Origin: Schmidtea nova
Taxonomy: Eukaryota
Direction of reading: 5' to 3'
Length of the DNA stretch: 64,000 nt
NCBI GenBank assembly: GCA_044892505.1
Contig: CM097884.1
Span: 125,736,001-125,800,000, forward strand
The translations under genes and the position numbers were made by a program. Positions 12,230 to 63,600 of this stretch are shown here, one piece after another. The notes beneath the pieces were generated by a model. The model saw only the letters and a list, made by a program, of their open reading frames with translations, did not search any database and had not been told where the DNA came from. Each line of letters opens with the position of its first letter. The first letter of the stretch is position 1.

Positions 12230-12256
12230 AGACCACTCCCAGGCGTCCAGGAGTGG
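12217..12256 (+). promoter_or_regulatory. -1 programmed ribosomal frameshift signal
   Basis: In-frame slippery heptamer T TTA AAC (12217-12223), 9-nt spacer, perfect 7-bp stem CCACTCC/GGAGTGG. The 0 frame stops two codons later and the -1 frame continues into pol. Confidence 0.75.
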
Positions 12257-15200: not shown

Positions 15201-15418
15201 AAGACGTTAAAATAGGAGATTCGGCATTAGTAAAAGTATTTCAGAAACAAGGATTTGGGGAGAAATACTGCGGCCCATATGAAATACTAGAGAAAGTAAA
15301 TGATTGGACTTTTAAATTAAGAAGCGAGGCTGATGGGAAGATAATACATCGTAATTATAACCAGATTAAGATTATCCCAGAAAGATCAGAAATAGCAAAG
15401 ATAGAGACGGACAGTTAG
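12230..15418 (+). pseudogene. pol: Gypsy-2 Pol: RT, RNase H, integrase with HHCC, DDE and GPY motifs; a few stops and frameshifts
   Basis: MCIDYRALN, MPFGLCAAPATFQR, YFDD, LDTDAS, TDHQAL, HQELGH...CIAC, GIDITGPF, HSDHGKNF, DGLIER, CGPYEI. Confidence 0.95.
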
Positions 15419-17604: not shown

Positions 17605-18868
17605 NNNNNNNNNNNNNNNNNNNNNNNNNNNNNNNNNNNNNNNNNNNNNNNNNNNNNNNNNNNNNNNNNNNNNNNNNNNNNNNNNNNNNNNNNNNNNNNN
17701 NNNNNNNNNNNNNNNNNNNNNNNNNNNNNNNNNNNNNNNNNNNNNNNNNNNNNNNNNNNNNNNNNNNNNNNNNNNNNNNNNNNNNNNNNNNNNNNNNNNN
17801 NNNNNNNNNNNNNNNNNNNNNNNNNNNNNNNNNNNNNNNNNNNNNNNNNNNNNNNNNNNNNNNNNNNNNNNNNNNNNNNNNNNNNNNNNNNNNNNNNNNN
17901 NNNNNNNNNNNNNNNNNNNNNNNNNNNNNNNNNNNNNNNNNNNNNNNNNNNNNNNNNNNNNNNNNNNNNNNNNNNNNNNNNNNNNNNNNNNNNNNNNNNN
18001 NNNNCACCTTTGATCTTTTTTTATTATTATTATCAATAATTCTCATAATGACTATAGATCAAAATTTTTTTTTATAAACAATAACACAATATTTCGGCAC
18101 AGCCTTTATCAAGTGTGTATTTCTATCGTTATATTTACTTAATCCTAAATAGTAGCCTTAATTATTTTTTTAATATTTTATAATGATTTTATTGGATGAA
18201 AAAATTTATTTTAATTTTTTTGTGCGAATTGAATGTTGATGGACGGTTTGTATTTTTTTATGAAAAAAGTCTCGGAAGCTAATCTTTGTATTGAATTTTT
18301 GAATCCCTCTTGTAGGATCTGGCATTTTGTTTCTTCTATAGATGGAGTTGTTTTATGTACTTTTTCCCAGTGTTCGTAATAATTACTGGTTTTGATTTTA
18401 GTATGTTCATTAAGTCGGGTGCGAAAAGTTCTATGTGTTTCTCCTATGTAAGTAGCGTCACATTTTTGACAAGAAAGTTTATATACTATATTTTTGGAAA
18501 AGCAAAAGCATCGGGTTGTGGAACGGCAAAGACATTTATGTTTGGAGATGTTGGAAATTGGTGGCTTTCGGAGTTGTGATTTTAACGGTGCGGAGGTTAT
18601 GAATGTTGGACGGATGTGGATAGGCAAATCTGTTTGATTAAAAATGTTGGTGATTTTGTTGGCTGTAGTGTCATTTAGGAAAGGTAATCTTAGATATGTT
18701 GTGTGTTTGTTATTGTTATTGTGTTTCTGGCGTTTTCTATTGTTGCGTTTATTGTGGTATGGTTCGTTAAGGAAGTGTTTCTTTACAAAGTCTTCAGGGT
18801 ATCCATTTTGGAGGAATCGTATTTTGAAGTTTTCTAATGTTTCTTGTATTTTGTTTGCGTCTGAACAG

Positions 18869-27710: not shown

Positions 27711-29051
27711 TTAATAATCGTCCAAAAGTGCATTTCAATAAAACAATTGGAAAAATGTCAGATTTCCCCGAGAAATTATTTTGCATGAATGAACGACCAG
27801 AAACGACTGAAATAGAGATTGGTAACATTAATGGGAAATCAATTCCACAGGTAAGGAGCACCATTTTATAAATGTTAATTAATGAACACTTCAGGAATGG
27901 ATTGTAAAAAGCAAAAATTCGGTCACCATTATGTTTCCAATAGAGCAAAGTTCTATTTCGGAATATCTTGGAACCTATTACTGTTTCGCAAGGAATAAAT
28001 ACGGAACCGATAACACGACACTGAAAGTCAAAAGTTTTGAATCTCTCAGTATAAATGTCAACTCAACCATCAACAAGATCGACAAAAATCCAGGAAGAGC
28101 TGATTTACTTTCCACTCTTGTAAGAAGTAACCGAAAATTACAAGTGAGCGTCATTGAATTTTAAAGGTTTACCTATCAACTGACACTGATTAGTTGGATT
28201 GTTATGCAACAGGAGAACCAAACGTTCAAATCCAGTGGTATATTTTCACGGAAAAGTACGTTCCAGATGTACCAATACCGGCGAGAAAAATACCCCTAAA
28301 TCCCAATGAAAAATCTCAGAATGTAATTGAAAGAATCACAAACAAACATTATCGCCTGACTCGGGATTATTACTCGCAAGATACTGTCGATTCTTTTCAA
28401 TGCGAGGCGACCTTGAAAGGCAAAACAGTGAGGAAGAACATTAAAATCCAAGGTAAATTCCATTATTTAAACACGCTTCTTCATTGGTTTGGGTAATAGA
28501 AATTAAAGACATTTTCAAAGTAAACTATGAAACTGACAAAGGAAATTCTTTACGTCAACAAGTTTTTGTTGACAAACCATTTCAAGCCTGGTGCAAAATG
28601 GAGAATGACAAGAAGGAGCCTGTTCCGATCAAGAAAGTTGAATGGATATTTAAAGAATCTAATGGCGGTTTGATTCCTCTTCTGAAATTTGCCCAGGTCG
28701 TACGTCCTACAGAAAATAAATTATATTTGTTGAACATTAGCCTAACATTTGGAACTTATGTTCGCAGTCAATGTATTGCCTATTATAATGACTCATATGA
28801 TGTCATTAGTGCTGAGGTTTCTTTGAATTTACAAGGTTTTTTCTCATGATTTTTACTTCATTAACATTTTTAAAATTCCCTTTGTAGAATCACCGAAGAT
28901 CTATTCAATTTATTTCAAACAAAACTCTCCTCAAAAGAAATTGCATATACCAGCGCCTTATAATTTAACGTACGATGCTTTGAAGAAAACTCAAATCGAG
29001 TGTATCGCTAATACTAGCACAAATGCAGTATCAAAAATTACTTGGTTGAAG
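27711..29051 (+). CDS. Host multi-Ig gene, exon cluster 27711-27850, 27895-28143, 28194-28452, 28500-28835, 28888-29051 (Ig domains 5-8)
   Basis: All GT-AG introns of 44-52 bp that preserve the frame. Motifs GTYYCFARNKYG, LDCYATGEPNVQIQWY, FQCEATL, WCKME..VEWIF, SQCIAYY, IECIAN..ITWLK. Confidence 0.88.
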
Positions 29052-40745: not shown

Positions 40746-42370
40746 TGTAGTGCCTCCGATAATAAATATTTATAACAATATTTAATTATTTAAATAAGAA
40801 GATTGTTATATAATCGAAATATATCGCGTTTATGTTGAATTTACTGAGTTGGCGTTTTTCTATAATTTAATTATTTATTAAAATAAAATAACTTGTTTCA
40901 ATAACAAGTTATTTTAGAAAGAGATTTTTTCAAAATGCAAGATAATAAAAAGTGGATTTTGAAAAAGCAACAAAATGATAAATAATTTGTATTTTAATAT
41001 AAATATATTTTATCTAATTATTGTAGTTTTTTCAATAACGCTACAATTGGTGTCAGAAGTGGGATAATTGTAGCGTTATTGAAAAAACTACAATAATTAG
41101 ATAAAATAAATTTATATTAAAATACAAATTATTTATCATTTTGTTGCTTTTTGAAAATCCACTTTTTATTATCTTGCATTTTGAAAAAATCTCTTTCTAA
41201 AATAACTTGTTATTAAAACAAGTTATTTAGTTTAATAAATAATTAAATATTGTGATAAATATTTATTATCGGAGGCTCTACAATGGCCCCCGCCGAAGTA
41301 AGCGGAGCGAATGGGGTACTATTGGTGCTGGATGCTGTTGATGTTGGTGCTGTAGATTTTGGGGCTGTAGACTTTGGTGCTATAGATGCGGATGCTGTAA
41401 ATGCTGGTGCTGTAGATTTTGGTGCTGCAGATACTGGTGCAATAGATGCTGGTGCTGTAGATTCTGGTGCAATAGATGCTGGTGCTGCAGATACTGATGC
41501 TGTAAATGCTGGTGCTGTAGATTCTGGTGCAATAGATACTTATGCTGTAAATGCTGGTGCTGTAGATTCTGGTGCTGTTGGTGCTGCAGATACTGGTGCA
41601 ATAGATGCTGGTGCAATAGATGCTGGTGCTGTAGATTCTGGTGCAATAGATGCTGGTGCTGTAGATTCTGGTGCAATAGATGTTGGTGCTGTAGATTCTG
41701 GTGCAATAGATGCTGGTGCAATAGATGCTGGTGCTGATGGTGTTGGTGCTGTAGATTCTGGTGCAATAGATGCTGGTGCTGTTGGTGCTGCAGATACTGA
41801 TGCTGTAAATGCTGGTGCTGTAGATTCTGGTGCAATAGATGCTGGTGATGTTGGTGTTGGTGCTGCAAATACTGGTGCAATAGATGCTGGTGCTGTTGGT
41901 GCTGCAGATACTGGTGCTGTAGATTCTGGTGCAATAGATGCTGTTGCTGTAGATTCTGTTGCAATAGATGCTGTTACTGTAGATTCTGGTGCAATAGATT
42001 CTGGTGCAATAGATGCTGGTGCTGCAGATACTGATGCTGTAAATGCTGGTGCTGTGGATGTAAATGTTAGTGCTGTTGGTGCTGTAGGTACTAGTGCTGT
42101 TGGTATTATTTCAGTAGATGCTGGTGCTGTTGGTGTTGATACTGGTGCTGTCACTTCTAACACCAATTGTAGCATTATTGAAAAAACTACAATAATTAGA
42201 TAAAATATATTTATATTAAAATACAAATTATTTTTCATTTTTGTTGCTTTTTGAAAATCTACTTTTCATTATCTTGCATTTTGAAAATATTTCTTTCTAA
42301 AATAACAAGTTATTTTATTTTAATAAATAATTAAAAATTGTGATAAATATTTATTATCGGAGGCACTACA
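40746..42370. mobile_element. Composite LTR insertion: LTR(+)+PBS joined tail-to-tail to a complete non-autonomous LTR element(-)
   Basis: LTR(+) 40746-41045, PBS TGGTGTCAGAAGTGGGAT 41048-41065, LTR(-) 41069-41282, repeat interior, PBS(-) near 42150-42165, LTR(-) 42168-42370. GCATA flanks both outer ends. Confidence 0.85.
41300..42150 (-). repeat. Codon-periodic tandem-repeat interior encoding an Ala/Pro/Ser/Thr-rich ORF (starts 42238, premature stop near 41540)
   Basis: Units such as GCACCAGCATCTATT / GCACCAGAATCTACA translate as APASIAPESTAP. Confidence 0.8.
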
Positions 42371-42749: not shown

Positions 42750-45700
42750 TTAGGTTTCTGATTTCTCGTCGTCCGTAATGGGTACCTTCTCATCGGTTTT
42801 AAATTGGTCTTCGGTTCCAAATACTAGTGTTGGTGTTAGCTTTTCTCTATAGGAACCTACCTCGTCATTTACTGCTTTTATTTGATTATAATTTCTTCTT
42901 ATTCTTTTTTTAGCTTTGTCACTATATAATACACAGGTCCATTTATCCATTATTTATTCTATTATGAATGGCCCTATATACTTCTTCTCGAAACCCCTTC
43001 TGTCTTCATTCTTTATCATTACCTTATCTCCTACTATCAATTCTTTGTGACATCGATTCTGATTATATCTTGCGACGATACACTCTCTTTGTCTATCCAT
43101 ATTTTCCCTTACTTTCTTGTGAATATCTGATAAATTTAGTTGCAGCTGTTGGACGTAATCGTTAGTCTTGAAAATGTCTCGTATTAACCTTTATTGCTGA
43201 TATGGGTAATCTTACTTGATTTCCAAATGCTATTTCATATGGTGAATAATTCGTTGACTTTTGCATTGTAGTTCTTAATCCGAACTCTATTACCGGTAAT
43301 ACTACACTCCAGTCTTTGCTCTTCTTCTCTTCTAACACCGCTGCAATCATACTTTTTGCAGTTTCAAATAGTCCTTCTACCAGTCCATCACTCTGTGGGT
43401 AGTAAAGTGAGGTAAATGTCTTCCTAATTCCTAATACTTTACAGTATTCGGCAAACAATCTTGATTGGAAATTACTTCCACAATCTGAGTGTATTTGTTC
43501 TGGTGCTCCAAACTTTGAAATCCACTGCGACCACACCGCTTCTGCAATATTCTCTGTCTCGATATTTCTCATTGGTATTAAACTTATATATTTCGAAAAT
43601 TAATCGATTATATCCAGTATATACCTAAATCCTTTCTGTGTTGTCTTGAACAGTCCTGTTATGTCGATTGCTATTATCTGAAAAGGTTTTTCTCTAATTA
43701 TGCTTTGAAATGCTGCCCTTGTTCTACCGTTTCTGTTTTTGTTATGTGCGCATTCTTGACATTTTCCTATTACTTCTGATATATCAGACTCCATATTAGG
43801 CCAATAATATTCATTCTTTATTATTCGATAAGTTTTTTCAATTCCGGAATGTCCTAGAAAACTGTGAAATTGTATTATTAATTTCTTCCTCTTTAATTTC
43901 GGGAGTATCAATCTGTATTCGTTATCCTCCTGGATATAAAGTAGATCACCCTTTATCCTTAGTATTTTTCTGTGTGCCCATATTGTTTGTAATTCTCTGA
44001 TGCCTCTTCTTATCTCTTCTACGTTTCTGTCATTTTTAGAATCTGAACTTTTCATCCTTTTAATTATGGTTTGTATGTCGACATCATCGTCTTGTCCCCA
44101 ATCATGTTCATGTACTTTCACATAACATCGTCGTTTTCTGTCCTTTTTACATCTATTAATTCATCGTATACTTTTACGTTTCGACACTTCATCGGTTCTT
44201 TATGCTTAAGTAAGCATTGTTCACATGGAGGTAACCTGGAAATCGCATCAGCATTTATGTGTTCTTCGCCCTTTCTATATTCGACAACCATGTCGTAGAC
44301 TTCTAGTTCAGCTCTCCAAACACAGTATTGTGATGTGTTTGGATTATCCCATTTCAATAACCATTTCAGCGCTTGGTGGTCCGTTCTCACTAAAAACTTT
44401 GATCCCATCAAATAATGTTTTAATTTCAGCACAAACGTATATATTGCCAATAGCTCTTTTCTTGTTATACAATATTTTCTCTGACTCTTACTCATGGTTT
44501 TTGAGGCATAACACAAAACTCTTTCTTCTCCATTTTGTCTCTGTGACAAAACGGCTCCCATATTATTGTACGAAGCGTCCGTGTCCAGTATATATTCGCC
44601 TTTCTTATTTGGCAAGGCCAACACTGGTGGTGTTGACAGTCTGCTTTTAAGTTCGTAAAATGCTCCTTTTCTATCTTCATTCCACACAAAATTATTTTCA
44701 CTCTTTAACATTGAACTCAATTTTTCTGATGTCGCTGCATAATTTTTTATAAATCTACTGTAATAATTGCAAAATCCTAAGAAGGTCTGCAATTCTTTTT
44801 TACATGTTGGCATTGTCCATGATCGTATACTCTCAATTTTCTCTGGGTCAGTTTTTACCCCATTCTCATTGATGACATGTCCTAAATAATTAACTTCTGT
44901 TTTTAAAAATGAACACTTAGCTGGTGATAATTTCAGTCCTGACTCTTTAATTCGGCGTAATACAGTGTTCAATCTTTGATTATGTTCTTCGATGGTTCTC
45001 CCAAATATAAGAACATCATCAAAATATACGACACACTTAATCCAATTTTCATTTCTCAAGACCATGTTCATAAGCTTCTGAAAAGTGGCTGGTGCGGAAC
45101 ACAATCCAAATGGCATTCGTGTAAATTCGAATTGTCCATACTTTGTGCTAAAAGCTGCCTTCTCTATGTCACCTTCTTTTATTGGTACTTGGTAGTAACC
45201 ACTTGTTAGATCTAATGTAGAGAAAACCTTTGCTCCTCCAAGTGTATCATAAAGATCTTTCACAGCTGGTATTGGAAAAATTGGTCTTGCCGTCTTTGCT
45301 TTCAGTGCCCTATAATCGACACACATTCTAATATCACTATTCTTTTTTCTTACGACTACAATCGGAAAATTCCACGCTGACTTGCTCGGTCTCACAATTC
45401 CAGCTCTTAATAAATCTTGTACCATGTGGTCAACCTCTTCCTCCATACCTAATGGTATCTTTCTCGGTTTAAAAGCAATTGGCCGGGCGTTTCCAGTGTC
45501 AATTTCATGATGTACTGATGTAATTTTCCCAATATCCATTTTATATTTACTAAAAACATCCTTATTTTCTTCTATTGTTTTCATTAACTATTTTCTTTCG
45601 CTATATTTAATAGTACGATCTAAAGAATCTTCTATACTTTGTAAAATATTATCGACTGCGGTGATTTCTCTTCGCTGTTCTGATGATGACATACTTTCAA

Positions 45701-45941
45701 TAGTAGCCTTTTCTGCCGTTTCATCGTAAAATCTTTCTAAAAAACCTAAAGTTATTCCTGCATGCAACTGTTTAATACCATCATCCATCATATCGATTTT
45801 TACTATTACAAATCCTTCATCAACTTTAAGCACGTAATCACTTATCAAAATTTCCCTCTCTGCCATTTTGACTCTTTCACCATTAAACACACAACTTTGA
45901 TTAAGATTCTCTAATCTATTTTTCTGCTTATCTATTGACAT
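42750..45941 (-). pseudogene. pol: Gypsy-3 Pol (RT, RNase H, integrase); no protease motif found
   Basis: MCVDYRAL, MPFGLCSAPATFQK, YFDD, LDTDAS, HSFLGH...CQEC, AIDITG, HSDCGSNF, DGLVE. Closely related to Gypsy-2 Pol. Confidence 0.92.
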
Positions 45942-46377
45942 TTCTGATAAAATACTCTCCTACTTTTTCAATCTGTACTTTACTTGATACAATAACTCTA
46001 ATAATCCTGATAACCGTCTCCCCAAGTCTCGTCTCTCCCTTCAACCGTATTACGACTCTCTAATACAGTTGGGATAAAATCGATCATGATAAATGATTTT
46101 CTATTGAAAAACGCCAATTTTTTTTTCATCCAAACTTTTTCATGCCACATCAGAGTTTCCGTTGAAGTCATTTGAGATTTTTCATTAGCTGATACGATTA
46201 CATTTGATGGAAAGGAACCTGATGGAATTGTTTTTCGTCGAAAAATCACATAAGCTGGTAATTTGCCGCTATTTGTTTGCCGTAGTATTTACATGCTTGT
46301 CACCTTCAGAATCGGTCTTTGATCCTCTCGTTGAACCTTCTTCTTCCTCTTTATCTTGTTCTTGAAAATATCTGAAT

Positions 46378-47302
46378 TTATTCCTCGTGTAAATATCTAG
46401 CGAAATGACCAACACCACATTCGTAACATTTAATCGCATTCATCCTATTTGTACCTATTCTGCAATTCGCTGCTATATGTCTCCTTTTTCCACATTTATA
46501 GCACGTCCTTGTATCAATGTTTCCACTGTCATCTTTTTTGAGGCAAAATCTTGCTATATGCCCTTCGTTGTTACATTTAAAACATGTAACCTTTTGCTGA
46601 TAGGAAGAAATGTCTTCTCTTACTTCTCTCTGATTTTTATTCGGTTTTCTCAATTGTTCTTTCCTTAATTCTTCAATAATCTTGTTCAACCTGTCAATTT
46701 CTCTTTTTAAGAAATTTATTGTCCTTTCGTCCGTTGTAGCCAGTTTCCTAACTTGATTATACTCGTTTTCCTTTTCTTTTACGCCCACGTGCTCCATTTT
46801 AATCTCTTCTATAGCTTCTTCCAACGTTTTTTGCTCTCTGATCTTCAAGGCTACCGAGAGAGTTTGGTTTCTCACACCTTCTATAAAGGCATGTATCATA
46901 ATTTTTTCTTTTTCTCCTTCGTAACTTAGACATCGCATTCTTACTCTTTGCAAAATCTACCACAGTCTCATCTCTTTCCTGTCTGGTGTCGTCGAGGATA
47001 TCTATAATTATTGAGGTCTTTGACCTTTTAACTTCTACGATTTTGATAATCTTTTCTTCGTATCAGTCTATAGTTCTGGTTGTGCTAATGTCTCCTAAGC
47101 ATTCGATCTCTTTTACTATTTCTTCGTCAAAGTATTTTAAAAATACTTTAATTTTTTCTTCTTCCGTTACCAAGTTGTGTTTGGCAAACTGATCAATAAA
47201 ACTTTTGACGAGAATTAAATGATCTTCAATTTTAACGCTGGTTCCTCGCTTCTTAAATGTAATCAATTTTGATAACTTATCTTTAAATAAGTATTCCTGC
47301 AA
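46378..47302 (-). pseudogene. gag: Gypsy-3 Gag with three CCHC knuckles, frameshifted
   Basis: CFKCNNEGHIARFC, CYKCGKRRHIAANC, CYECGVGH. Confidence 0.85.
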
Positions 47303-50789: not shown

Positions 50790-51440
50790 TTGTGTTCGCT
50801 AGCGTCTACACCCATCAAAATTATGTTAGCTAGTGTCTACACCCATTAAACACTATGTTAGCTAGCGTTTACTCCCATCAAAAAAAATATTTTATGTACG
50901 TTTAACAAAGATTATTTTCGAAAAATTTTCAATGTTGAAACAACAAAGAAACTAACAAAGAAATTTTTCAAAGATTTTCTATGTCTGTTTAACAAAGACA
51001 TGTTTTGCATTTGCATTGCATTTCCATTACACNNNNNNNNNNNNNNNNNNNNNNNNNNNNNNNNNNNNNNNNNNNNNNNNNNNNNNNNNNNNNNNNNNNN
51101 NNNNNNNNNNNNNNNNNNNNNNNNNNNNNNNNNNNNNNNNNNNNNNNNNNNNNNNNNNNNNNNNGTTAATCGGGCTTGCAATGTCTTTGTTAACTTGCAT
51201 CTACATTGAAATGTCTTTGTTAACTTGTACATGGATTGAATTGTCTTTTTTAATATTGTACATGGATTACATTGTCAAAATTATTATTATTATTGTTATT
51301 ATTTTTACCTTGCATGTATGTCTTTGTTAATTTGACTTGTAGCTGCAATGTCTTTGTTAATTTATCTTGTCTTCTTTGTTAAGTTGCATTGACATTGCAA
51401 TGTATTTGTTAACTTGCATCTGCATTGCAATGTCTTTGAT
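50790..51440. repeat. Minisatellites (about 32-bp TGTTAGCTAG... unit and about 30-bp AATGTCTTTGTTAACTTGCATCTGCATTGC unit)
   Basis: Direct observation; orientation flips across the gap at 51033-51164. Confidence 0.85.
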
Positions 51441-52379
51441 GTAAGTAGAGTAGGGGGAGCGCCCAAGAACAGGAACAGACCCCCTCCCTCCCCCCCAAAA
51501 AAAAATTTTTTTTGTTTAAATGAAGTGAATTTTTAAAAAATTTTTATTTTGTTTAAATTAAGTGAATTTTTAATTTTTAATTTTGTTTAAATGAAGTGAA
51601 TTTTTTAATTTTAATTTTTTGTTTAAATGAAGTCAATTTAATTTATTATTTTGTTTAAATGAAGTCTTTATTTTATTTTTATTTATTTTTATTTATTTTT
51701 ATTTATTTTTATTTTATTTTTATTTATTTTTATTTATTTTTATTTATTTTTAATTTATATTTAATTATTTTAATAATTTATTTTTAATAATTTATTTTAA
51801 TAATTTATTTTAATTTATATTTATTTTAATTAATATTTATTTTTTATTTATTTTAATTAATTAATATTTATTTTTAATTTATTTTTAATAATTTATATTT
51901 ATTTATTTTAATTAATTAATATTTATTTAAATTTATTTTTGGTTCAGTTTGAATAATAATAATAATAATAATAATAAAAACTTAGAAAAATTTTTAAAAT
52001 AATAATANNNNNNNNNNNNNNNNNNNNNNNNNNNNNNNNNNNNNNNNNNNNNNNNNNNNNNNNNNNNNNNNNNNNNNNNNNNNNNNNNNNNNNNNNNNNN
52101 NNNNNNNNNNNNNNNNNNNNNNNNNNNNNNNNNNNNNNNNNNNNNNNNNNNNNNNNNNNNNNNNNNNNNNNNNNNNNNNNNNNNNNNNNNNNNNNNNNNN
52201 NNNNNNNNNNNNNNNNNNNNNNNNNNNNNNNNNNNNNNNNNNNNNNNNNNNNNNNNNNNNNNNNNNNNNNNNNAATAACACTAATATTTCATCACAGTGT
52301 AAATAATACAATAAAATAGTAAATTATTAAGAAAAAACTTTGAAATAAAAATAAAGAACAACTAAATCACAAAACTTTA

Positions 52380-52765
52380 TTATAAATTATAAATGTCGTT
52401 ATAATATGCTTTACGCATTTCTGACATTAAGATATGCACCGAATGATCTCTTTTAAAATCATGACAGCATGCACATCCGTTTACGCAGGATACTCTCAGT
52501 GAGTCTTCGCAAACAATGCAATTTTCAATGCACTTGACTCCAGCTCCTAGCACCATATCGTAATGAATCTCGAGCAATTGTTCGATATTGATCCCAGTAA
52601 GTTTGTATATCTTATGAACCAATAACTCTGGCGCACAGTAATCCAATGAATCTTTTATTTTTGGATATAATTCTTGAATTTTCTTCAGGACCACTTCAAA
52701 TAAATAAGCTATATTAAAAATATTAATAATACAGTTAATTAAAAATAATACTTACTTTTAGACAT
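52380..52765 (-). CDS. Polinton spliced Cys/His-rich protein (exons 52765-52756 and 52708-52380)
   Basis: ATG TCT AAA A|GTAAG...ATAG|CT joins in frame (47-bp intron). C-terminal cluster CIENCIVC..CVNGCACCH..H. Confidence 0.65.
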
Positions 52766-52800: not shown

Positions 52801-53283
52801 TTAAACAAAATTAAATAATAAATCGAGATATTTTTCATCAATTAATTCATTATTAATTAATGAATTAATATAATTTTTAATTTCATTTACTTGATTAAAA
52901 TAATCCAATGTTTTAATTCCTAATATTACAACTTTTCCACTTGAAAAAATATTAATACAAATAGGGTTATAATTTATTAATCTTAAAGCTGGAAATATTT
53001 CGGGTTCGTACCAGCACTCTGTTTTATTTTGCAATTCGTATAAATTTATGGATTTACCCATATCCAATGTTATAGTGATCGATTGAATTTTTAAATCTGA
53101 AATTTTATATTTCAAATCATCTGGTTTTAACGGTTGCTTACAACCCATTACACGACATTTTCCCGATCTGAAAAATAAAATAGGGTACTTTCCACTCCTA
53201 TCTATAACTTGCTGGGGTTTCCCAACAGGAAATAACATGTTTGGAACTAAACACTTGCCCATATAATTAATATTACTTATCAT
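52801..53283 (-). CDS. Polinton-encoded divergent TATA-binding-protein (TBP)-like protein, about 160 aa
   Basis: Both TBP repeats are visible: ILFFRSGKCRVMGCK, LKIQSIT, YEPEIFPAL and INIFSSGKVVILGIK versus TBP ALIFSSGKMVCTGAK, FKIQNMV, YEPELFPGL and LIFVSGKVVLTGAK. Confidence 0.85.
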   Translation of the reverse strand: MISNINYMGKCLVPNMLFPVGKPQQVIDRSGKYPILFFRSGKCRVMGCKQPLKPDDLKYKISDLKIQSITITLDMGKSINLYELQNKTECWYEPEIFPALRLINYNPICINIFSSGKVVILGIKTLDYFNQVNEIKNYINSLINNELIDEKYLDLLFNFV

Positions 53284-53339
53284 TTTTATAAATTGAATAA
53301 ATATAAACAATATTAAATTAATTAATTAATTAATTAAAA

Positions 53340-53963
53340 ATGGAATTAAGAAATGATGCAGTTTATCAAATAGTGGGCCCAAGTGGTAGTGGAAAAACAT
53401 TATTTGTATGTAAATTGTTGCAATCAAAAATGTTTAAATCAAAATTCAATAAAATTTACTGGCATCGGGGAGCTGATGAAGAACATGGACTGACTCAAGA
53501 TCAATTCTGCAAATTAAAAATGACAATTATAAAAGGGTTTGATAAAAACTGGTCATCTAGATTACGACAAGGCGATGTTATAATTATCGATGATTTGTAC
53601 CAAGAAGCAAATAAAGAAAAAGATTTTAATAATTTATTCACAAAAATTAGTAGACATTTAGGAGTTACTGTAATTTTCATTACTCAAAATTTATTTCATC
53701 AAGGTGGTAGTCACAGAACTCGTAATCTAAATGTTCAATACTTGGTTATATTCAAAAACCCAAGAGATGCTACAATTATTGATTTTCTAGCAAGACAAGC
53801 TTACCCTAATGATAGGAAATTCTTAATTAATTCATTTCAAGATGCTACTAAAGTTCCTCATGGATATTTATTCTTTGATTTTACTCAACAATGTCCTGAT
53901 GATTTACGTATCCGAACGGATATATTTAACGAAAATGGAGTCACGGTTTATAAACAAAATTGA
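53340..53963 (+). CDS. A32/FtsK-like genome-packaging ATPase
   Basis: Walker A GPSGSGKT, Walker B IIIDD, SRH motif, ITQNLF. Confidence 0.95.
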   Translation: MELRNDAVYQIVGPSGSGKTLFVCKLLQSKMFKSKFNKIYWHRGADEEHGLTQDQFCKLKMTIIKGFDKNWSSRLRQGDVIIIDDLYQEANKEKDFNNLFTKISRHLGVTVIFITQNLFHQGGSHRTRNLNVQYLVIFKNPRDATIIDFLARQAYPNDRKFLINSFQDATKVPHGYLFFDFTQQCPDDLRIRTDIFNENGVTVYKQN

Positions 53964-53984: not shown

Positions 53985-54170
53985 ATGTCATTTAAAAAAG
54001 TAATTGACAAGTTAAATAAAGAAGCTATTCAAAAAGCTGATCAAAAACTACTTAAAAAAGTTGATCAAAAACTTCTTAAAAAAGTTGATCGAAAATCTAA
54101 ATTAGTTAAAAAAGTTACCAAAAAGATTGGTAAAAGAAAGAAACAAGTAAAGAAGTGGATAAAATTATAA
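53985..54170 (+). CDS. Small Lys-rich protein, possible DNA-condensing core protein
   Basis: 61 aa, very basic, with KKVDQKLL repeats, in tight gene spacing. Confidence 0.6.
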   Translation: MSFKKVIDKLNKEAIQKADQKLLKKVDQKLLKKVDRKSKLVKKVTKKIGKRKKQVKKWIKL

Positions 54171-54200
54171 GCGAAATAAATATACACAAAAATTTTAATC

Positions 54201-54530
54201 ATGAAATTTGAACGTAGTTTACCGTATTTTAATGCTTTGGTTAAAGCTCCAACAAATAAGCGAATGATAATTTTACAAGCTTTCCCACCCTTTGTTATTG
54301 ATGATTTACTTGAAATCGTTTTTAATATTGTTCATGGTAATGTAAATATTAGTAGATCAAAGAAAATTGAACTACAAAAACATAAAAATTCGCTTTTATC
54401 ATTAGTGAATACCAAAAATAGAAATCTTATGCGAAAAATAATATATAAACAAAAGGGTGGGTTTCTCGGTACATTAATTCCAATAGTATTATCAGCAATA
54501 AGCGCAATCTCATCTTTAAGAAATGGGTAA
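54201..54530 (+). CDS. Conserved Polinton protein with a C-terminal amphipathic (cupiennin-like) peptide
   Basis: EIVFNIVHGNV...QKGG|FLGTLIPIVLSAISAISSLRNG. Confidence 0.8.
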   Translation: MKFERSLPYFNALVKAPTNKRMIILQAFPPFVIDDLLEIVFNIVHGNVNISRSKKIELQKHKNSLLSLVNTKNRNLMRKIIYKQKGGFLGTLIPIVLSAISAISSLRNG

Positions 54531-54592
54531 TAAAATGTCTGAACCGAATAAACATAATATAGATTTAAATATTCTAACAAATTGTTGTATTA

Positions 54593-55678
54593 ATGAAGAA
54601 AATCATGAAGAATATAAAAACGATATGGACAAACCCAAAAGATCCCGATGGTTTTGGTTCAGTCAAAAAATTGGCAAAAAGAATAAAAAGTTCAAAGAAT
54701 GAAACTCAGAAATGGTTATCTGATCAATTGGCATATAGTTTAAATAAACCAATGTTGAAAAGATTTCCTACACGCAAATATAAAACTTTTGGGGGTAACG
54801 ATTTATGGCAAATGGATTTGATGGAAATGATTCCTTATTCTAAAATTAACAAGGGTTACAAATATATTTTGACTTGTATTGATGTTTTTAGCCGTTATGC
54901 ACGAGCTATTCCAACAAAAACTAAATCTGCTAATGAAATGGCTGAGGCTATTGAATCTTTATTTAAAGATGGGAAGCCACGTAATTTACAAACTGATTTG
55001 GGTAAGAAATTAAATTTTTAAAAATTAATTAATTTTAATTTAGGAAAAGAGTTTTATAACAGCAAAGTAAAAGAAGTGATCAAAGGAATCAATCATTATT
55101 CTGTATTTTCTCAATTCAAAGCTGCTCATGTTGAAAGATTTAATAGAACTTTAAGAGATCGTTTGAAAAAGTATTTTGTGTATCAAGGTAACAAAACGTG
55201 GATAAATGTTTTACCGAAAATTATTTCCAGTTACAATCGATCACCGCATTCGGGATTAAATAGAATGAAACCTGTCGATGTATATTCAAATAATAATTTT
55301 GACGGATGGATAAAAGATAGATTAAAATCAATTAATAAAAAACCGAAATATAAAGTAGGCGATTATGTGAGAATGAGTAAAATCAGTGCTTCTCCCTTCA
55401 TCAAAAATTTTGATAGTAATTGGAGTGATGAAGTATATCAAATCTCAAATGTTGATACTAATCAAAATCCTGTCATGTATACTATTTCCGATCATGAAAA
55501 CAATGTAATCGAGGGTAAATTCTACGAACAAGAACTTCAAGTTATTCCAGCTCCCACAGTTTTTAGAATTCAAAAGATTTTAAAAACCAAAACTGATGGG
55601 AAATATAAACAATATTACGTTAAATGGCATGGCTATGAAACTCCAAGTTGGATATCTGAAAAACAATTGATTAAATAA
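54593..55678 (+). CDS. int: Polinton retroviral-type integrase with C-terminal chromodomain; spliced (intron 55002-55043)
   Basis: WQMDL, CIDVFSRY, LQTDLG|KEFYN restored by splicing, VERFNRTL, YYVKWHGY..SWI. Confidence 0.93.
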
Positions 55679-55683
55679 ATATT

Positions 55684-56721
55684 ATGAAAGAAAACCAGTT
55701 TTATATGATTTTGCCTAGCAATGCATGTCCTCTTATTTATCCTAATAATGAAGCTAGTAATTTTAATGTAGAATTTCAAAATCCGATTTATTTAAATAGT
55801 AATGACGATTGGGAAGTTGCTTTGATTGATTTTACTTTTGTGTATAATTTGTTCCCGTATTATAGTAATTCTTTTATTCAAATTGAAACTAAAAGAGAAA
55901 TTCAAGAAATTAGTTATTTGAGAATTAATAATCAAAATAAAACAATTCAAGTTATAGTTTCTCAACCTAGTTCAGACACTGATGTATTTATTGAAAAATA
56001 TAATTATTTAGTGATTGTTTGCCCACATGTTCCATTTAAAATTACATTTCCAGATCTTGAACATGCAAAAAGTTTTGGATTGGAAAATATATCAATTACA
56101 AGTGAAAATGACCATTGTCGTTTAAAATTACCAAAATTCACGAATGATAATAGTCTTGAACAATTTGGAATTTTAATAAATTATGACATTAAAACTGTTA
56201 ATGATTATTATTTTCAAGATGAATTATTCATAACGTCATTACCGGAATTGCAAGGATATTTAATGAAAATTAATCCATCTCCATTTAAAGAATTGAAACT
56301 TGTCAATAATGAATTGGTTAAAATTATTCTTCAGGATAATATTTCAAAAATTACTTTTGATTCAAATTTAACCAAATCTCTGGGTCTACAGAAACAAACA
56401 TATACTGATACAGAAATAATTGGTGTAAAAATCCCCAAAATTTTACAACTTCATCAGCAAATGTTCATTTACAGCAACATTATTGAACCAGTAACTGTTG
56501 GAGATGTACGAGTTCCCCTCCTTAAATCAATTTGGATCAAGAAATATGACCAAGGCGAAGTTGTACAAATTGAAATAAAGAATCCAATGTATTTGCCGAT
56601 TTCAACATCAACTATAAACAACATTGAAATCAATATTCGTGATGACAGTGGAAAATTAATTAAATTTTCAAAAGATACAAAGACTCATTTGACTCTACAT
56701 TTTCGTAAAATAAATGAATAA
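55684..56721 (+). CDS. Minor capsid protein (penton/PX)
   Basis: FYMILPSNA...WEVAL at the N-terminus; FIYSNIIEP..VGDVRVPLL...INIRDDSG...LHFRK at the C-terminus. Confidence 0.88.
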   Translation: MKENQFYMILPSNACPLIYPNNEASNFNVEFQNPIYLNSNDDWEVALIDFTFVYNLFPYYSNSFIQIETKREIQEISYLRINNQNKTIQVIVSQPSSDTDVFIEKYNYLVIVCPHVPFKITFPDLEHAKSFGLENISITSENDHCRLKLPKFTNDNSLEQFGILINYDIKTVNDYYFQDELFITSLPELQGYLMKINPSPFKELKLVNNELVKIILQDNISKITFDSNLTKSLGLQKQTYTDTEIIGVKIPKILQLHQQMFIYSNIIEPVTVGDVRVPLLKSIWIKKYDQGEVVQIEIKNPMYLPISTSTINNIEINIRDDSGKLIKFSKDTKTHLTLHFRKINE

Positions 56722-57121
56722 TCCAGATATTATCAGTTTCTATAGCAACAGCCAATCAGGTGGAGAATTACCGTATTTTGTAGGTAAACAATATGGAACT
56801 GGTTGGTTGAAAACGATAGGTAGATTTGCATTACCAATTCTAAGACGTATTGGAAATTTTGGTATGAAAACTGCCAATGACGTGTTAAATAATAATTCAA
56901 AGATTTTACCTGCACTAAAATCCAATGCTATTTCTGAAATTAAAGACTCATTGCCCGATGTGATTCATCATTTGCCACAAGTAATTAGTAAAGTGACTGA
57001 TGTGTTTAACGAAAATAAAACTGAAAATAAACAAAATGGCGGAATTCTTAAACGAAAAAGAAATATGAAGAAACATATAAACAAAAGAATGAAAGGATAT
57101 GGAACAATTTTTGAAAAATGA
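56714..57121 (+). CDS. Conserved Polinton virion accessory protein (PZ-like) with an amphipathic helix
   Basis: FYSNSQSGGELPYFVGKQYGTG-WLKTIGRFALPILRRIG; lies between the penton and hexon genes. Confidence 0.75.
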   Translation: MNNPDIISFYSNSQSGGELPYFVGKQYGTGWLKTIGRFALPILRRIGNFGMKTANDVLNNNSKILPALKSNAISEIKDSLPDVIHHLPQVISKVTDVFNENKTENKQNGGILKRKRNMKKHINKRMKGYGTIFEK

Positions 57122-58344
57122 TTAGTGCAAAATCTGAATTATGTCTTTTTGATAGACCATCTCCACAAGCAGTAATTGAACATGGTGCATTTGAAGATAT
57201 TTACCCAACAAATTCAATTACAGATGCTGGGACATCATCTATTCAATTTTACATCAATGGATCTCAAACTGAATATTTAGATTTGAACGATACTTTACTA
57301 TCTCTTCAGGTCAAAGTTGTAAACAAATCGGGTGAAAATTTAGGATTGGATGCTGATGTTACTCCCAACAATTTCTTTTTCCAAACTCTTTTTAAAGAAG
57401 CCGAATTAATTTTCAATTCTACTAAAGTTGAAGGGGGAAATGATACATTTACACACAAAGCCATGATTGAAACTATTCTCAACTACAATAGTGATACAAA
57501 ACACACATCTTTAACTCCAATGGGATACAATGACCATGATCTTACTAGAAAAGCATGGATTGCAAAATCAAAACCATTTTCAATTTGTTCTCCATTACAT
57601 TTCGATTTCATGGAACAACCCAAGTATTTATTACCAGGTGTTAGTGTTCAAATTAAATTGACGAGATCAAATTCATCCAATAGTTTAACATGTACAAAAA
57701 TTGAGCCTATAATTGAATTATTAGAGGCAAAATTAATGGTTAGAAGAGTTCGAGTAGAACCATCAGTTTATGCTGGTCATCAAATTGGACTTGGTACAAG
57801 AAATGCAATTTATCCAATAAGAAATAAGGAAGTTGTAGAATTTTCATTGCCAATGGGTTCTTCTTCATTTTATAAGGAACAAATCTTTGGAGATAGACGA
57901 TTACCAAACTTTATTCTTGTAGCATTTCAAGGAAATAAAAAACATAGTGGTTCTTTTACTGAAACTTATTCTATTTACGATCATTTTAATGTCAAATCAT
58001 TAACTTTATCGAAAGGAAGTGATTATCGTGAAAAATATTCTCAAGATTTTGAAAATGATATTTGTAGTACTAGTTATATGCAATCTATTGTCCGTAACCT
58101 TGGTTACCTGAATAAGAGTATGAATTGCGGTATTACTTTATCAGATTGGAAAAGCAAATATCCTTTTTTCACCTTCGTTTTGGCTCCAGATTTTGACCTA
58201 AATCAAAGTCAATTACCTCAACAAGGTAATCTAAGACTTGATATTAAATTTGGTACACCATTGACTGAATCAGTTTCTGTAATTGTATATGGAGTTTTTG
58301 AAAAGGAATTACAAATTACAGCTAATCGAACAATACTGGTTTGA
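57118..58344 (+). CDS. Major capsid protein (double jelly-roll, hexon/PY)
   Basis: KSELCLF..P.PQ..IE, IQFYI.G..EYLDL..T.L, QPKYLLPGV...IKLTR, FDL..., GNLRLDIKF. 408 aa, intact. Confidence 0.93.
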   Translation: MISAKSELCLFDRPSPQAVIEHGAFEDIYPTNSITDAGTSSIQFYINGSQTEYLDLNDTLLSLQVKVVNKSGENLGLDADVTPNNFFFQTLFKEAELIFNSTKVEGGNDTFTHKAMIETILNYNSDTKHTSLTPMGYNDHDLTRKAWIAKSKPFSICSPLHFDFMEQPKYLLPGVSVQIKLTRSNSSNSLTCTKIEPIIELLEAKLMVRRVRVEPSVYAGHQIGLGTRNAIYPIRNKEVVEFSLPMGSSSFYKEQIFGDRRLPNFILVAFQGNKKHSGSFTETYSIYDHFNVKSLTLSKGSDYREKYSQDFENDICSTSYMQSIVRNLGYLNKSMNCGITLSDWKSKYPFFTFVLAPDFDLNQSQLPQQGNLRLDIKFGTPLTESVSVIVYGVFEKELQITANRTILV

Positions 58345-58385
58345 TTAAATGGTTATAAACTAATTTGACAAAAATTTATCATCAA

Positions 58386-58764
58386 ATGAAGTAAGATTTA
58401 TTTTTAATAATTAAATTTTATTGATTTTAGTTCAATTCAGGTAGATCAGATTGCTAGAAAATTGATTGGATCGGAATTTCTAGGAGTTTTTCCTCTAGAT
58501 AAAATACCGTATATAGATGTGAATAAAGCATTGATTGTCAATACTCAATCATCAAACCTCAAAGGTGAACATTGGCTTGCAATTTATAATAAACCCGATA
58601 AAATATACGTGTTTGATCCAATGGGATTTTATTATCCACCGATATTATTGAAAAAATTATCGTCAATGTTAAAACCAATAGAATATAACAGAATTCGATA
58701 TCAAAATCCAATGACAAAAACCTGTGGGCAACATTGTTTAGCTTGGCTAAAATATATGAAATAA
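58386..58764 (+). CDS. Adenain-like cysteine protease; spliced (intron 58391-58430)
   Basis: ATG AA|GTAAG...TTAG|T gives MNSIQVDQI...FLGVFPLD, with GEHW, FDPMG and QNPMTKTCGQHC catalytic motifs. Confidence 0.92.
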
Positions 58765-59763: not shown

Positions 59764-60292
59764 TTATTCATGAAAATCAGTAATTTTCCATATAGGCTTT
59801 ATCACGTTTTCTGTTTGTTTAAATCCTTGTAAGATAATTTGAATTTGATACATTGAATTATCATCTAATTTGCCTAAATCTGTTTCTTTTTTGCAGTTCA
59901 TATATGTGAATTCCTCGTTGAATTGAATATCTTTATTTATTAGCATTAAAATTTCAGATAGATTCTTTCTATCAGTTTCCCCGATTTTTCCAACCTGAAT
60001 ATTGAATTGACATTGTTTCAATGTAACAGGTTCCTGTAAATAATATTAATTAGATTTTAATAATTTTTAATTAATTACTTTAAATGAATATTTGATTGGA
60101 TATTTCAAATACTCCATCGAGTATTGCATGAATTGAACTGGTGAATTCAATGCCAAATTAGATGAAGAAATAGGATTTTCCTCAAGTATAATCTTCATTA
60201 TTTCTTGTTTTGTCATTCTTTTCGATTCTAGAAAAAATAAATTAAAAAATAATCATTTAAAATTAATTAATCTTACTTTTCAGTTGATACAT
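59764..60292 (-). CDS. Three-exon Polinton protein (144 aa), putative OB-fold ssDNA-binding protein
   Basis: Exons 60292-60277, 60227-60079 and 60033-59764 splice in frame (49- and 45-bp GT-AG introns). C-terminus YQIQIILQGF...IKPIWKI. Confidence 0.65.
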
Positions 60293-60601
60293 TTTTTAAT
60301 GATTATTTTAATTTTATAAGTCGTTTATATAGTAATTTTTAAATTATTTTGACCAATCATAATCAATAAATATATATTACGATATTTTGAATGTGTGTAT
60401 ACACACTTGATATACATCATTGTTATTTTATCATAATTTTTATCATAATATTTTTATCATAATTTTTATCATAATATTTTTATCATAATTTTTTATCATT
60501 ATTTTGATCATTATTTTTTTATATTATTTTTAAAATTTATAGGCAATTTATATCAAAAATATTGCAACTCCACAATTCATGATGTAAAATGCCATGAAAA
60601 A

Positions 60602-63600
60602 ATGGAAAAATATTATGCATACCCTCATAACTGTAAAACCTACTACATTTGTCCTTTTTGCAAATCTACTTCGTCCTCTTCGTATATTGACTTTTACAAT
60701 ACTCATTGCGATCATTTAGATCAATTTAAAACATCTAAAAAATCAATTTTTAAATTACCGATTAAAAGAAAATGTAATGTAAATAGTCCAATCCCAATCA
60801 AAATTAACAAGTCAGTTCTTTCTGATGATATTTCTTCAGTTGTTCCTCCAATTGTTCTTTCTGATGATATTTCTTCGATTGTTCCTTCAGATATAGTTGT
60901 AATTTCTGATGATGATGATGATAATGATACCATTCCTGTTGATAACATTCTTGATAATGATACCATTCCTGTTGATAACATTCTTGATACCATTCTTGAT
61001 AATGATATCATTCCTGATAACATTCTTGATTTAAATAATCTTTCTGATTTTGTGGTTGTAGACTCTTTTGATCCTATCGATAATATTCAAATTGGTGGTT
61101 CTTTTGATAAAATTTCTGACGAAAAATACTCTTTAGTTCCTGAAGTACAGGTTGGTGGCTCCATTTTACCTGTTGTTAAATTTGATTTAAATAAATCACA
61201 TGCTATAGTGAAAATGATTGTAACTAACTTTAATTTAAAAAGCATGTTTGTACCTGATAATTTAATTAATAAATTAAATAATGTAATTGAAACCATGGGA
61301 ACGGTTAAAATTCAATTTTGCATCGAAGTTGAGTTTGAAAAAGATGGTGCTTTTCAAACTATAGTTATTTCTAACTCTGCAAAACCTGTCACAGATACCT
61401 TTATAGACGATGGCATTAATATTCTTAATGAAAAAATTACATTAATTAATAATAGAGGCAGTAACTGGATAATTAATAAAATTAATGAAATTCATTTCAT
61501 CTTAACCAAATTTTCTGAGATAAGTAGGTTGATAGGTTACGGTGGTATTGACACTCCTGAATCTTTAAAGTCAAAACATTGTGTTGTAAATGTTCAGAAT
61601 TCTGATGACTTGTGCTTTATCTATTCTGTTTTAGTAATTATTAAATATGATGAGATATCTGGCCGTAAAAATAAACATAGGATCAGTAATTACAATCTTT
61701 CTGATGTTAACTTTAGTCCTTCTGATTTGCCTATGCGTCTTTGCAATATCCCAAAGTTTGAAGCTAAAAACCCGGGATATGCGATTAATGTACTTTCATA
61801 TGATGAATCTGGAATTCTAGACACTAAGCCTGAAGTTTTCAAACATCCGTGTATTGACATAATTCATAGATCGAAAGTAGTAGACGGAATTCCTATTAAC
61901 TTGATTCTTTTACAAAATGGTGACTCTTTTCATTATATAGCAGTAACCAATCTTGATAGGCTTTTAAATCTTGACAATAAATCGATATCTGGTACTCGTA
62001 TTCAAAGTATATGGTGCCATCGATGCTTAAATGGGTTTAGATATCAAGATTCATTTGAACGTCATCAAGAGTTGTGTTCTAAAAATCAATTAGGCACAAC
62101 TCTATATACTTTGCCTAAAAATCCTTATTTGACATTTAGTAATTGGGGCAAAACAATTACTCCACCTTTTGTTGTTTACGCCGATTTTGAGGCAATCTTA
62201 CCTACTGATGATAAGTACTTTCAAAGACATGTCCCAATATCTGCCGGTCTTTTACTTGTAAATAATTTCACTGGAGAAAAGATTTACAGGAGTTTCTTGG
62301 GTCTTGATTGCGTTACTAATTTTCTTGCTGAAATTAATAATATAGGTGAAGAAATTGTTTTTCCTTTTTATAAAAACAATTACAAAAAACCACTTATTAT
62401 GACATTTGAAAATAAAATATTTTTTGCCTCATCTACAAATTGTTATCTTTGTAAAAATCGTTTAGTTAATCCGGTTAGAGACCATGATCACTACACTGGT
62501 GAATATTTGGGAGCTGCTTGCTTAAAATGTAATCTTACTAGACAGATTCGTAAGGAACTACCGGTTGTGTTTCATAATTTAAAAGGGTATGACATGCACC
62601 ATATTCTTAAATATGGATTGGCAAACTTTTCAAATTGGAAAATCTCATGTATTCCAACTACGAGTGAAAAATTCTTAACTTTATCTGCAAGAGTCGGTGA
62701 TTTAACAATTAAATTCATCGATTCTTGTCAATTTATTAACTCCAGTTTAAATGATGCGGTTAAAACATTGACTTCATTACCTTTGACTAGATCTGAATTC
62801 ACCGGGACTATTGTTGACTGTAAGGGTATTTTTCCTTATGATTTTGCAACATCGTTAGAAGTCTTGAATGAAACATATGAATTACCACCAATCTGGGAGG
62901 GTGTTAAGCAGGCTGAATACGACAAGGCATTAGTTATTTGGAGGGAAACTAATTGTCAAACTCTTTGTGACTATATGATGATATACTTAAAACTTGACGT
63001 CTTTCTTCTTGCTGACTTTTTCCAACAGTTTAGAGCCAAGTCAATTTCTCATAATAGGTTAGAACCGTTGAATTTCTTGGGTATTCCAGGTATGTCGTGG
63101 GCTTCTGCGCTTCTTACCTTGGAAGAACCTATTGAGTTGCTCCAGGATATGGAGATGTATAATTTTTTCGAAGGGGGGGATCCGTGATGGTTTGACATTT
63201 GTCAACAAGCATCACGTAGTATCCTCCGAAACGACTGAACTACTTTACATCGACATTAATAATTTGTACGGTTGGGCCTTAAGCCAAAAATTACCTTGTG
63301 GTAAATTTAAATGGATTAATGATGAGAAAAAATTAAATAAATTAATTAATTTGATGGATGCTGACTTGGAACTTTTAACAATCGGTGTAACATTTGAAGT
63401 TGACTTGGTAATCCCAGTTGAAATTCACGATAAATTAAATGACTTTCCGGTTGCAGCAGAGAAAATGTGTGCTCCCAATTCTAAAGTTGAGAAGTTAATG
63501 TTAACACATTATCCAAAGTTCAACTATGTTGTTCATTGGAGGCTTTTAAAATTATTTGTTTTCTTTGGATGTTAAAATAACACGAGTTCATCGGGCTGTT

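Follow-up and report, generated by a model that had tools for sequence, protein, structure and literature searches.

A TBP-fold protein encoded by a Polinton of Schmidtea nova and a promoter-like box at virion-module genes

A Polinton with a TBP-like gene

The window (the whole 64,000-nucleotide stretch of DNA analysed) contains a 14,336-bp element, which runs from window position 51444 to 1.8 kb past the window end. Its genes and features are as follows; the box named here is (T/C)ATAAAC(A/G), described below.

51438..52007, no strand: 6-bp target-site duplication (51438-51443) and left terminal inverted repeat from 51444 (copy comparison)
52389..52760, minus strand: Cys-rich gene 3' of the TBP-like gene, putatively spliced
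52801..53283, minus strand: TBP-like gene, short form, 160 aa, product P0001 (ORF, Pfam, AlphaFold2 model, structure alignment)
53284..53339, no strand: AT-rich spacer between the TBP-like and ATPase starts, 56 bp, 96.4% A+T
53340..53963, plus strand: A32-like packaging ATPase (Pfam Pox_A32)
53985-54170: basic 61-aa ORF
54201..54530, plus strand: 109-aa gene with an adenovirus pX-like C-terminus (Pfam Adeno_PX)
54593..55678, plus strand: rve integrase with chromodomain, two ORFs in the window copy (Pfam)
55684..56721, plus strand: 345-aa gene, likely minor capsid protein (from position; no Pfam match)
56714..57121, plus strand: conserved 135-aa gene
57118..58344, plus strand: major capsid protein, double jelly roll (hhalign 96.7%, E 4e-10, to a PF21738 protein)
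58354..58743, plus strand: box variant TATAAACT, then adenain-type protease gene with a short putative intron (Pfam Peptidase_C5)
60602..63187, plus strand: protein-primed DNA polymerase B, first ORF, box-free upstream (Pfam)

The gene order starts with the Cys-rich gene, the TBP-like gene, the ATPase, the basic 61-aa ORF, the pX-like gene, and the integrase, and continues with the likely minor capsid gene, the 135-aa gene, the major capsid gene, the protease, small genes, and the polymerase. The protein-primed polymerase (pPolB), rve integrase, packaging ATPase, protease, and double-jelly-roll capsid make up the Polinton/Maverick set. In the window copy, the polymerase gene is broken and extends beyond the window, and the integrase is broken too. 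The Cys-rich gene had no Pfam or Atlas match and no match in 59 metagenome loci, and the major capsid protein had no PDB sequence match. The PF03175 match of the polymerase was weak (E 4e-8, versus 8e-28 for a second Polinton lineage of this genome). The divergent polymerase and the absence of a PLA2 domain suggest that the element may belong to the Beta class of adintoviruses. A single likely minor capsid gene (ending at window 56721) is present in the window copy; five other copies of this subfamily (L106-L120) have two in tandem, ~46% identical.

Terminal inverted repeats, which are very AT-rich, and the 6-bp target duplication were present in all five copies whose ends were read. A 20-mer of the TBP-like gene gave 1,432 exact genome matches (control, 0), and the ATPase adjoins the TBP-like gene in 39 of the first 40 copies along contig 1. 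When the ATPase was searched for with an outgroup query, the best 30 loci all had a TBP-like neighbour, 47-70% identical to P0001. A family-level search for TFIIB found only 6 matches in this genome, so TFIIB is absent from the multicopy element at that sensitivity.

Fold, surfaces, and family of the TBP-like protein

An earlier sequence-only reading had described an intact 160-aa ORF with both TBP repeats, transcribed divergently from the packaging ATPase across a 56-bp, almost pure AT spacer. The ORF at 52801-53283 (minus strand) is indeed stop-free over 160 aa, and its structural model aligns with TBP over both lobes. The divergent arrangement and the spacer also stand, with "transcribed" to be read as gene orientation only.

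The Pfam PF00352 match covers the C-lobe only (residues 64-130, E 7e-17), and PDB sequence matches span approximately residues 48-140 of P0001. The AlphaFold2 model, built from 27 aligned relatives, has a mean pLDDT of 91. Human TBP aligned with it (VIA) over 144 residues in both lobes (Z 12.9, rmsd 2.6 Å), and human, yeast, plant, and archaeal TBPs superposed on residues 1-145 with Z of 12-12.9 and rmsd of 2.5-3.0, versus a Z of 6.8 at most for unrelated folds. Foldseek against TBP structures returned an E of ~1e-8. The model shows the pseudo-symmetric, two-lobed saddle of the TBP family, and the fold check proposed with the earlier reading therefore yielded a TBP fold. On the predicted structure, P0001 is confirmed as a two-lobed TBP-fold protein encoded by a Polinton.

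DSSP assigned four strands and no helix to residues 1-60 of the model, and helices 81-85 and 129-144 to the C-lobe. Each lobe of a TBP typically carries helices H1 and H2; the modelled short-form N-lobe is helix-free, where the earlier reading had proposed the loss of most of H1 and H2. Its description of the C-lobe was likewise borne out: P0001 contains the YEPEIFP stirrup, the IFSSGKVV strand, and the helices. P0001 begins at the equivalent of yeast residue 66, and its final 15 residues form a low-confidence tail, largely missing from 26 relatives.

Surface residues are given in yeast numbering, transferred via plant TBP in a sequence alignment that was anchored by the structural range, rather than by model coordinates. 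The frequencies refer to 144 short and 63 long rows; P0170 and P0057, both family rows, were excluded from the frequency table, and P0101 and six partial or misread loci from the alignment. Kept in the family are N69, F116, S118, K120, Q158, E186, P187, E188, F190, P191, F207, and K211. In both short and long forms, F99 is replaced by P in 83-86% of rows (the remainder mostly gaps), V122 by R in 89-92%, T124 by M in 99-100%, and L205 by N in 96-100%, and N159 is changed to S/T and V161 to T/S. I194 is replaced by R in 91% of short and 62% of long rows. Position 203, a gap in the alignment, is Cys in P0001 by manual reading. The sequence-only reading had noted one lost intercalating Phe (KRF to GKP). 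G21-K22-P23 of P0001 does align with yeast K97-R98-F99, but about seven DNA-facing positions are changed: among the intercalating Phe and paired Asn residues, F99 is Pro and N159 is Ser/Thr, with F116, F190, F207, and N69 kept.

In view of the yeast V122R phenotype, the Arg and Met at 122 and 124 could reflect loss rather than retuning of DNA binding. The altered-specificity yeast mutant TBPm3 carries changes at I194, V203, and L205 (excerpts of PMC1636458), and the I194 and L205 changes of the Polinton family coincide with these specificity positions.

Two stirrup glutamates have been assigned to TFIIB/TFB/Brf binding, and an N-lobe patch to TFIIA, TAF1, Mot1, and Brf1/2 (Ravarani et al., excerpts of PMC7221094). 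In the Polinton family, 94% of short and 83% of long rows retain E186, and 95% and 100% retain E188; E93 and E95 of P0001 correspond to these residues, giving an acidic C-lobe stirrup. The basic patch (133-145), which in eukaryotic TBPs serves TFIIA, TAF1, Mot1, and Brf1, is deleted from short rows and lacks conservation in long ones. This residue table supports the earlier proposal that the TFIIB stirrup was kept and the N-lobe regulator surface lost. According to the same excerpts, other viral TBPs mostly lose the glutamates, the first being ~40% kept, and carry their own TFIIB.

A word search returned 26 relatives, and a profile search 55 clusters at E <=1e-30 and 764 at E <=1e-10, the latter set including cellular TBPs. 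The family comprises more than 150 distinct rows, often Polinton-linked. Among 64 metagenome loci, 59 belong to the family and five (L090-L094) are divergent cellular-type TBPs, which were excluded from family counts. A Polinton core gene was seen at 28 of the 59, including eight of the ten contigs longer than 5 kb, and the position of the TBP-like gene differs among elements. The linkage of homologues to Polintons, one of the suggested checks, was thereby found, and the neighbouring genes in the own genome and in metagenome loci agree with a virus-encoded, Polinton-linked TBP.

A tree built on 175 rows and 146 columns places all 159 family rows in a single clade with a stem of 0.60 (SH-aLRT 29.5; 98.5 once one long-branch cellular-type row is included). 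Two host TBP-type genes fall far outside this clade, as expected if the gene is not a host pseudogene copy. Within it, 86 of 87 short forms nest within long forms (support 87.6), and the model of a long form from a Polinton contig has both N-lobe helices (H19-25 and H63-77). These placements indicate that helix loss is a derived state within a larger family. The longer Polinton-linked forms keep the helices, have already lost the basic patch, and share the same box. Apart from the family, the genome holds a single canonical TBP along with several divergent paralogues; of these, one seems to lack introns and another has a nearby duplicate (L095-L101; G000:C1:389.09 Mb, C1:277.6 Mb, C1:473.8 Mb, C2:358.7 Mb).

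Median dN/dS was 0.135 over 266 non-independent pairs from 30 intact loci of 34 in the own genome, and 0.20 over 38 non-independent pairs from 53 of 55 metagenome loci. Among sampled copies, pN/pS was 0.29 for the TBP-like gene versus 0.40 for the ATPase. These ratios, the last of the checks proposed earlier to be mentioned here, indicate purifying selection on the TBP-like gene. They speak against a captured, decaying host TBP copy hitchhiking in the transposon, as do the distant host genes in the tree and the conservation of the family across metagenomic Polintons. A stop or indel interrupts the gene in nine of the 39 full-length copies sampled, as decay would predict, and 30 are intact; we find such a hitchhiker scarcely credible.

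A promoter-like box at virion-module gene starts

Alignment of the 100 nt upstream of gene starts revealed the box (T/C)ATAAAC(A/G). It is present at 73 of 83 virion-module gene starts at loci that are related by descent, versus ~5.5 in dinucleotide shuffles, and the antisense box occurs at 0/83. By gene, it was counted at 21/22 ATPase, 12/15 integrase, 10/10 major capsid, 11/12 pX-like, 8/9 135-aa, 2/2 basic ORF, and 9/13 minor capsid starts. The occurrences in the window are as follows.

53302..53309, plus strand: box TATAAACA, 38 nt upstream of the ATPase ATG
53949..53956, plus strand: box TATAAACA within the C-terminal ATPase codons (YKQ), 36 nt before the 61-aa ORF
54166..54173, plus strand: one-base box variant TATAAGCG before the 109-aa pX-like gene; full box in another copy
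54444-54451: box inside the 109-aa pX-like gene
54547-54554: box variant near the integrase start
55604-55611: box within the integrase span
56613-56620: box in ATA AAC codons of the 345-aa gene
57076-57083: box in ATA AAC codons of the 135-aa gene, 42 nt upstream of the capsid ATG
60322..60329, minus strand: box TATAAACG, 37 nt upstream of an ATG of a small minus-strand gene

The box at 53302..53309 is found in all 38 readable spacers among 40 unselected copies. It lies 31-49 nt upstream of the ATPase ATG in 21/22 loci, irrespective of the upstream gene, and is retained in 28/30 diverged ATPase loci of the own genome; certain boxes lie 70-100 nt upstream of the ATG. Elsewhere it is embedded in upstream coding sequence, in various frames, via otherwise uncommon codons. 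ATA AAC occurs in 13/13 complete minor-capsid C-termini and 9/9 135-aa genes, the background codon shares being 0.30 and 0.22.

The box is nearly missing upstream of TBP-like starts (2/50) and was found at none of three polymerase starts. Of the 50 TBP-like starts, 22-25 have an ordinary TATA-type word upstream. A CCAAT box upstream of the TBP-like gene was considered and proved unsupported (6/50 versus 3/83). The promoter-like box is restricted to virion-module genes of TBP-bearing elements. The earlier reading had envisaged generic AT-rich promoters as the target of the protein; this specific box is the likelier one.

The identity of the reader has to be weighed against these counts. We take box position 7 to be the C(-25) of entry 1qn3. 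By its title, that PDB entry holds wild-type TBP crystallised on the C(-25) variant box, so host TBP may itself read the box, as a weak TATA variant, the Polinton protein then acting as a decoy or repressor, either by competing for TFIIB or by blocking promoters. The commonest box form does start with TATAAA, and a decoy would fit a protein that retains the TFIIB surface on a heavily altered DNA face. Against this, C is fixed at position 7, and TATAAA[AT] is rare in the same windows (11/83, antisense 9). Long-form elements mostly have CATAAAC (11/14), and several accessory genes of TBP-bearing elements have ordinary TATA words in place of the box. We judge this alternative unlikely. Short-form elements mostly have TATAAAC, and from this division the box appears to track the DNA-face changes, not the helix loss.

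A different reader altogether seems quite unlikely. The Forkhead consensus is RYAAAYA, which ATAAACA fits, and TATAAA and CATAAA are variants of the poly(A) signal; the box might thus serve a host Forkhead protein, the poly(A) machinery, or another element protein, with the TBP-like protein bending DNA elsewhere, for example at the AT-rich terminal repeats. GTAAACA, however, occurs at 0/83 starts, antisense copies are nil, and G is tolerated at the last position, unlike what a Forkhead site would lead one to expect. The box precedes the ATPase even where, as in the window, there is no same-strand upstream gene, and A is mostly avoided at position 1 (4/65). A role in replication would leave the kept TFIIB glutamates unexplained.

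The same genome holds a second, TBP-less Polinton lineage with a PF21738 capsid and a PLA2 domain, and its 65 gene starts in 10 regions contain no box. TBP matches in these regions adjoin a window-type ATPase, i.e., they belong to neighbouring elements; the one exception is a broken TBP fragment abutting a truncated TBP-less control element. This control is a single contrast between two Polinton classes, and the box might instead be a property of the class with no connection to the TBP-like protein. We found no TBP-less member of the window element's own class, and IMG/VR scans with the TBP alignment, capsid, and ATPase gave no match, hence no outside TBP-less control.

Nearly all gene starts of the TBP-less lineage (L175-L194) read TAAAATG, AAAATG, or TAAATG, and ATTACAAC recurs upstream of its capsid gene. 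TAAATG is the poxvirus late initiator. Such starts could point to helper-virus dependence, or may reflect an A-rich start context alone. Two of five repeat-bounded TBP-less Polintons are inserted within TBP-bearing Polintons (G000:C3:34362501-34382500, L187-L188; G000:C1:249314001-249334000, L189-L190), one interrupting the integrase gene, the other lying between this gene and the pX-like gene, possibly through target preference or mere density.

Proposed mechanism and related systems

Fold, Polinton linkage, purifying selection, residue changes, and the position, strand, and gene-class specificity of the box are directly supported. From co-occurrence and the residue changes, we infer the link between protein and box; binding, orientation on the box, TFIIB recruitment, and early/late timing are further deductions. 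We consider it probable that P0001 is a viral TBP of altered specificity, dedicated to late promoters and relying on host TFIIB, in a parallel to herpesvirus ORF24 and its TATT promoters. Host TBP would initially express the TBP-like gene via the ordinary TATA-type words found upstream of about half of such genes. The box upstream of the packaging and virion genes would next be bound by the Polinton protein, which would bring in host TFIIB and RNA polymerase II and so act as a late-gene switch.

Seated on the box, the viral TBP would have its C-lobe upstream. The rebuilt N-lobe (F99P, V122R, T124M) may accept the C at position 7 that is disfavoured by host-type TBP, and the invariant A at position 2 may be read by I194R/L205N. 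In the 3' half of the box, which the N-lobe contacts, C is discriminated against in TBPm3 selections (excerpts of PMC1636458). The intact E186/E188 stirrup would dock host TFIIB, and without the N-lobe basic patch TFIIA, TAF1, Mot1, and Brf1 would have no docking site; in the short form the helices that bear the patch are missing altogether. The same glutamates contact the cyclin folds of Brf1/Brf2 (excerpts of PMC7221094), and the partner might conceivably be Brf1 or Brf2 with RNA polymerase III, not TFIIB. The targets are protein-coding genes, some with putative GT-AG introns, and the N-lobe surface used by Brf1 is lost, which makes a polymerase III route very improbable.

Compared with cellular TBP (PF00352) and TRF2/TBPL1, the Polinton protein has the same two-lobed saddle and keeps N69, F116, F190, P191, F207, E186, and E188; TRF2 also lacks an intercalating Phe (excerpts of PMC10005294). 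In contrast to cellular TBP, the short form is ~30 residues shorter, has lost the N-lobe helices and the basic regulator patch, carries fixed changes at 99, 122, 124, 159, 161, 194, and 205, and is encoded by a mobile element.

The herpesvirus mimics (KSHV ORF24, EBV BcRF1, HCMV UL87) likewise pair a viral TBP-like protein with a modified late TATA word and host Pol II, KSHV ORF24 acting at TATT promoters ~30 bp upstream of late starts (excerpts of PMC6541308). The beta/gamma-herpesvirus mimics contact Pol II themselves, as part of a viral complex of six proteins, and the Polinton route is predicted to differ: its TBP has 160 aa, is close to cellular TBP, and keeps the TFIIB surface. BcRF1 is only a distant fold match to P0001 (E 0.01). 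No herpesvirus-type preinitiation partners were recognised among recurrent neighbours, and 160 aa leaves little room for a Pol II-binding domain.

The TBP-like proteins of NCLDVs share the viral TBP fold through BFVD matches, and according to the excerpts of PMC7221094 they too have lost the N-lobe regulator signature; unlike the Polinton family, they mostly have their own TFIIB and a diverged stirrup. BFVD matches (E <=0.001) are 9-21% identical to P0001, versus 24-28% for cellular TBPs. The earlier statement that viral TBP homologues are known from NCLDVs holds but is too narrow, herpesviruses and a MELD-virus legend label having to be added.

Adintoviruses, Mavericks, and Polintons share pPolB, rve integrase, ATPase, adenain, capsid, and terminal repeats (Starrett et al. 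2021, excerpts of PMC8502044). The legend of a MELD-virus map of that work (preprint 10.1101/697771) carries a "TBP" gene label, which may or may not denote the present family. The excerpted text on adintoviruses gives no TBP family, structure, or promoter motif, and one supplement contained no match. The terms TBP and TATA are missing from the main texts of PMC11161782, PMC10748475, PMC8097293, and 10.64898/2026.06.19.733378, and Polinton and Maverick from the excerpts of PMC7221094. A description of the Polinton TBP family or the box was not found in the literature searches or in the texts named here. New relative to the earlier reading are the family-wide DNA-face changes and the strand-specific box at virion-module starts.

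If the proposed switch is real, endogenous elements would run an early-to-late programme and, unlike virophages, express virion genes without a helper virus. The protein would then be a natural example of a minimal TBP with altered specificity and no regulator surface. A broader claim, on which we are evenly divided, is that a self-contained late switch belongs to one of the two main Polinton classes, in the form of an approximately 145-residue TBP that works with host TFIIB at a TATAAAC box of its own. For Polinton autonomy and capsid-gene expression, a promoter word with its cognate initiation factor would be a concrete, testable answer, and box and TBP-like gene together could serve as a sequence marker to sort autonomous from helper-dependent elements. 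The family also offers a natural experiment, in which a TBP keeps its TFIIB contact, sheds the regulator surface, and apparently switches its box.

Several neighbouring genes recur. Long-form metagenomic TBP elements (L079:8993-9394, L077, L080, L081, L089) encode a PLA2-like gene, which in L079 has a box 35 nt upstream, even though PLA2 is usually ascribed to the other virion module. On several metagenomic TBP-bearing contigs (L053:1897-3327, L055, L058, L061, L064), the early-type genes are adjoined by one for a protein with leucine-rich repeats and a hydrophobic N-terminus. Two neighbour families have no Pfam match: one ends in IIQGYK...PIW (21 loci), a motif whose like also ends a small minus-strand ORF at window 59764-60292, and the other has an exonuclease-like DxE start (19 loci); examples of the two are L040:1256-1882 and L054:56-646.

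Elsewhere, the window contains gypsy-type LTR retrotransposons in three broken copies, together with a reverse transcriptase ORF that ends in a GIY-YIG-like tail and that we take to be Penelope-like (4880-8885, 12115-15418, 43162-46938, 18644-20788). A low-complexity pentapeptide repeat at 41283-42238 is open on both strands (306 and 232 aa), with Pfam Pentapeptide_2 on the plus strand. Exon-sized frames at 27931-28849 resemble pieces of a host cell-surface gene with what are presumably Ig domains.
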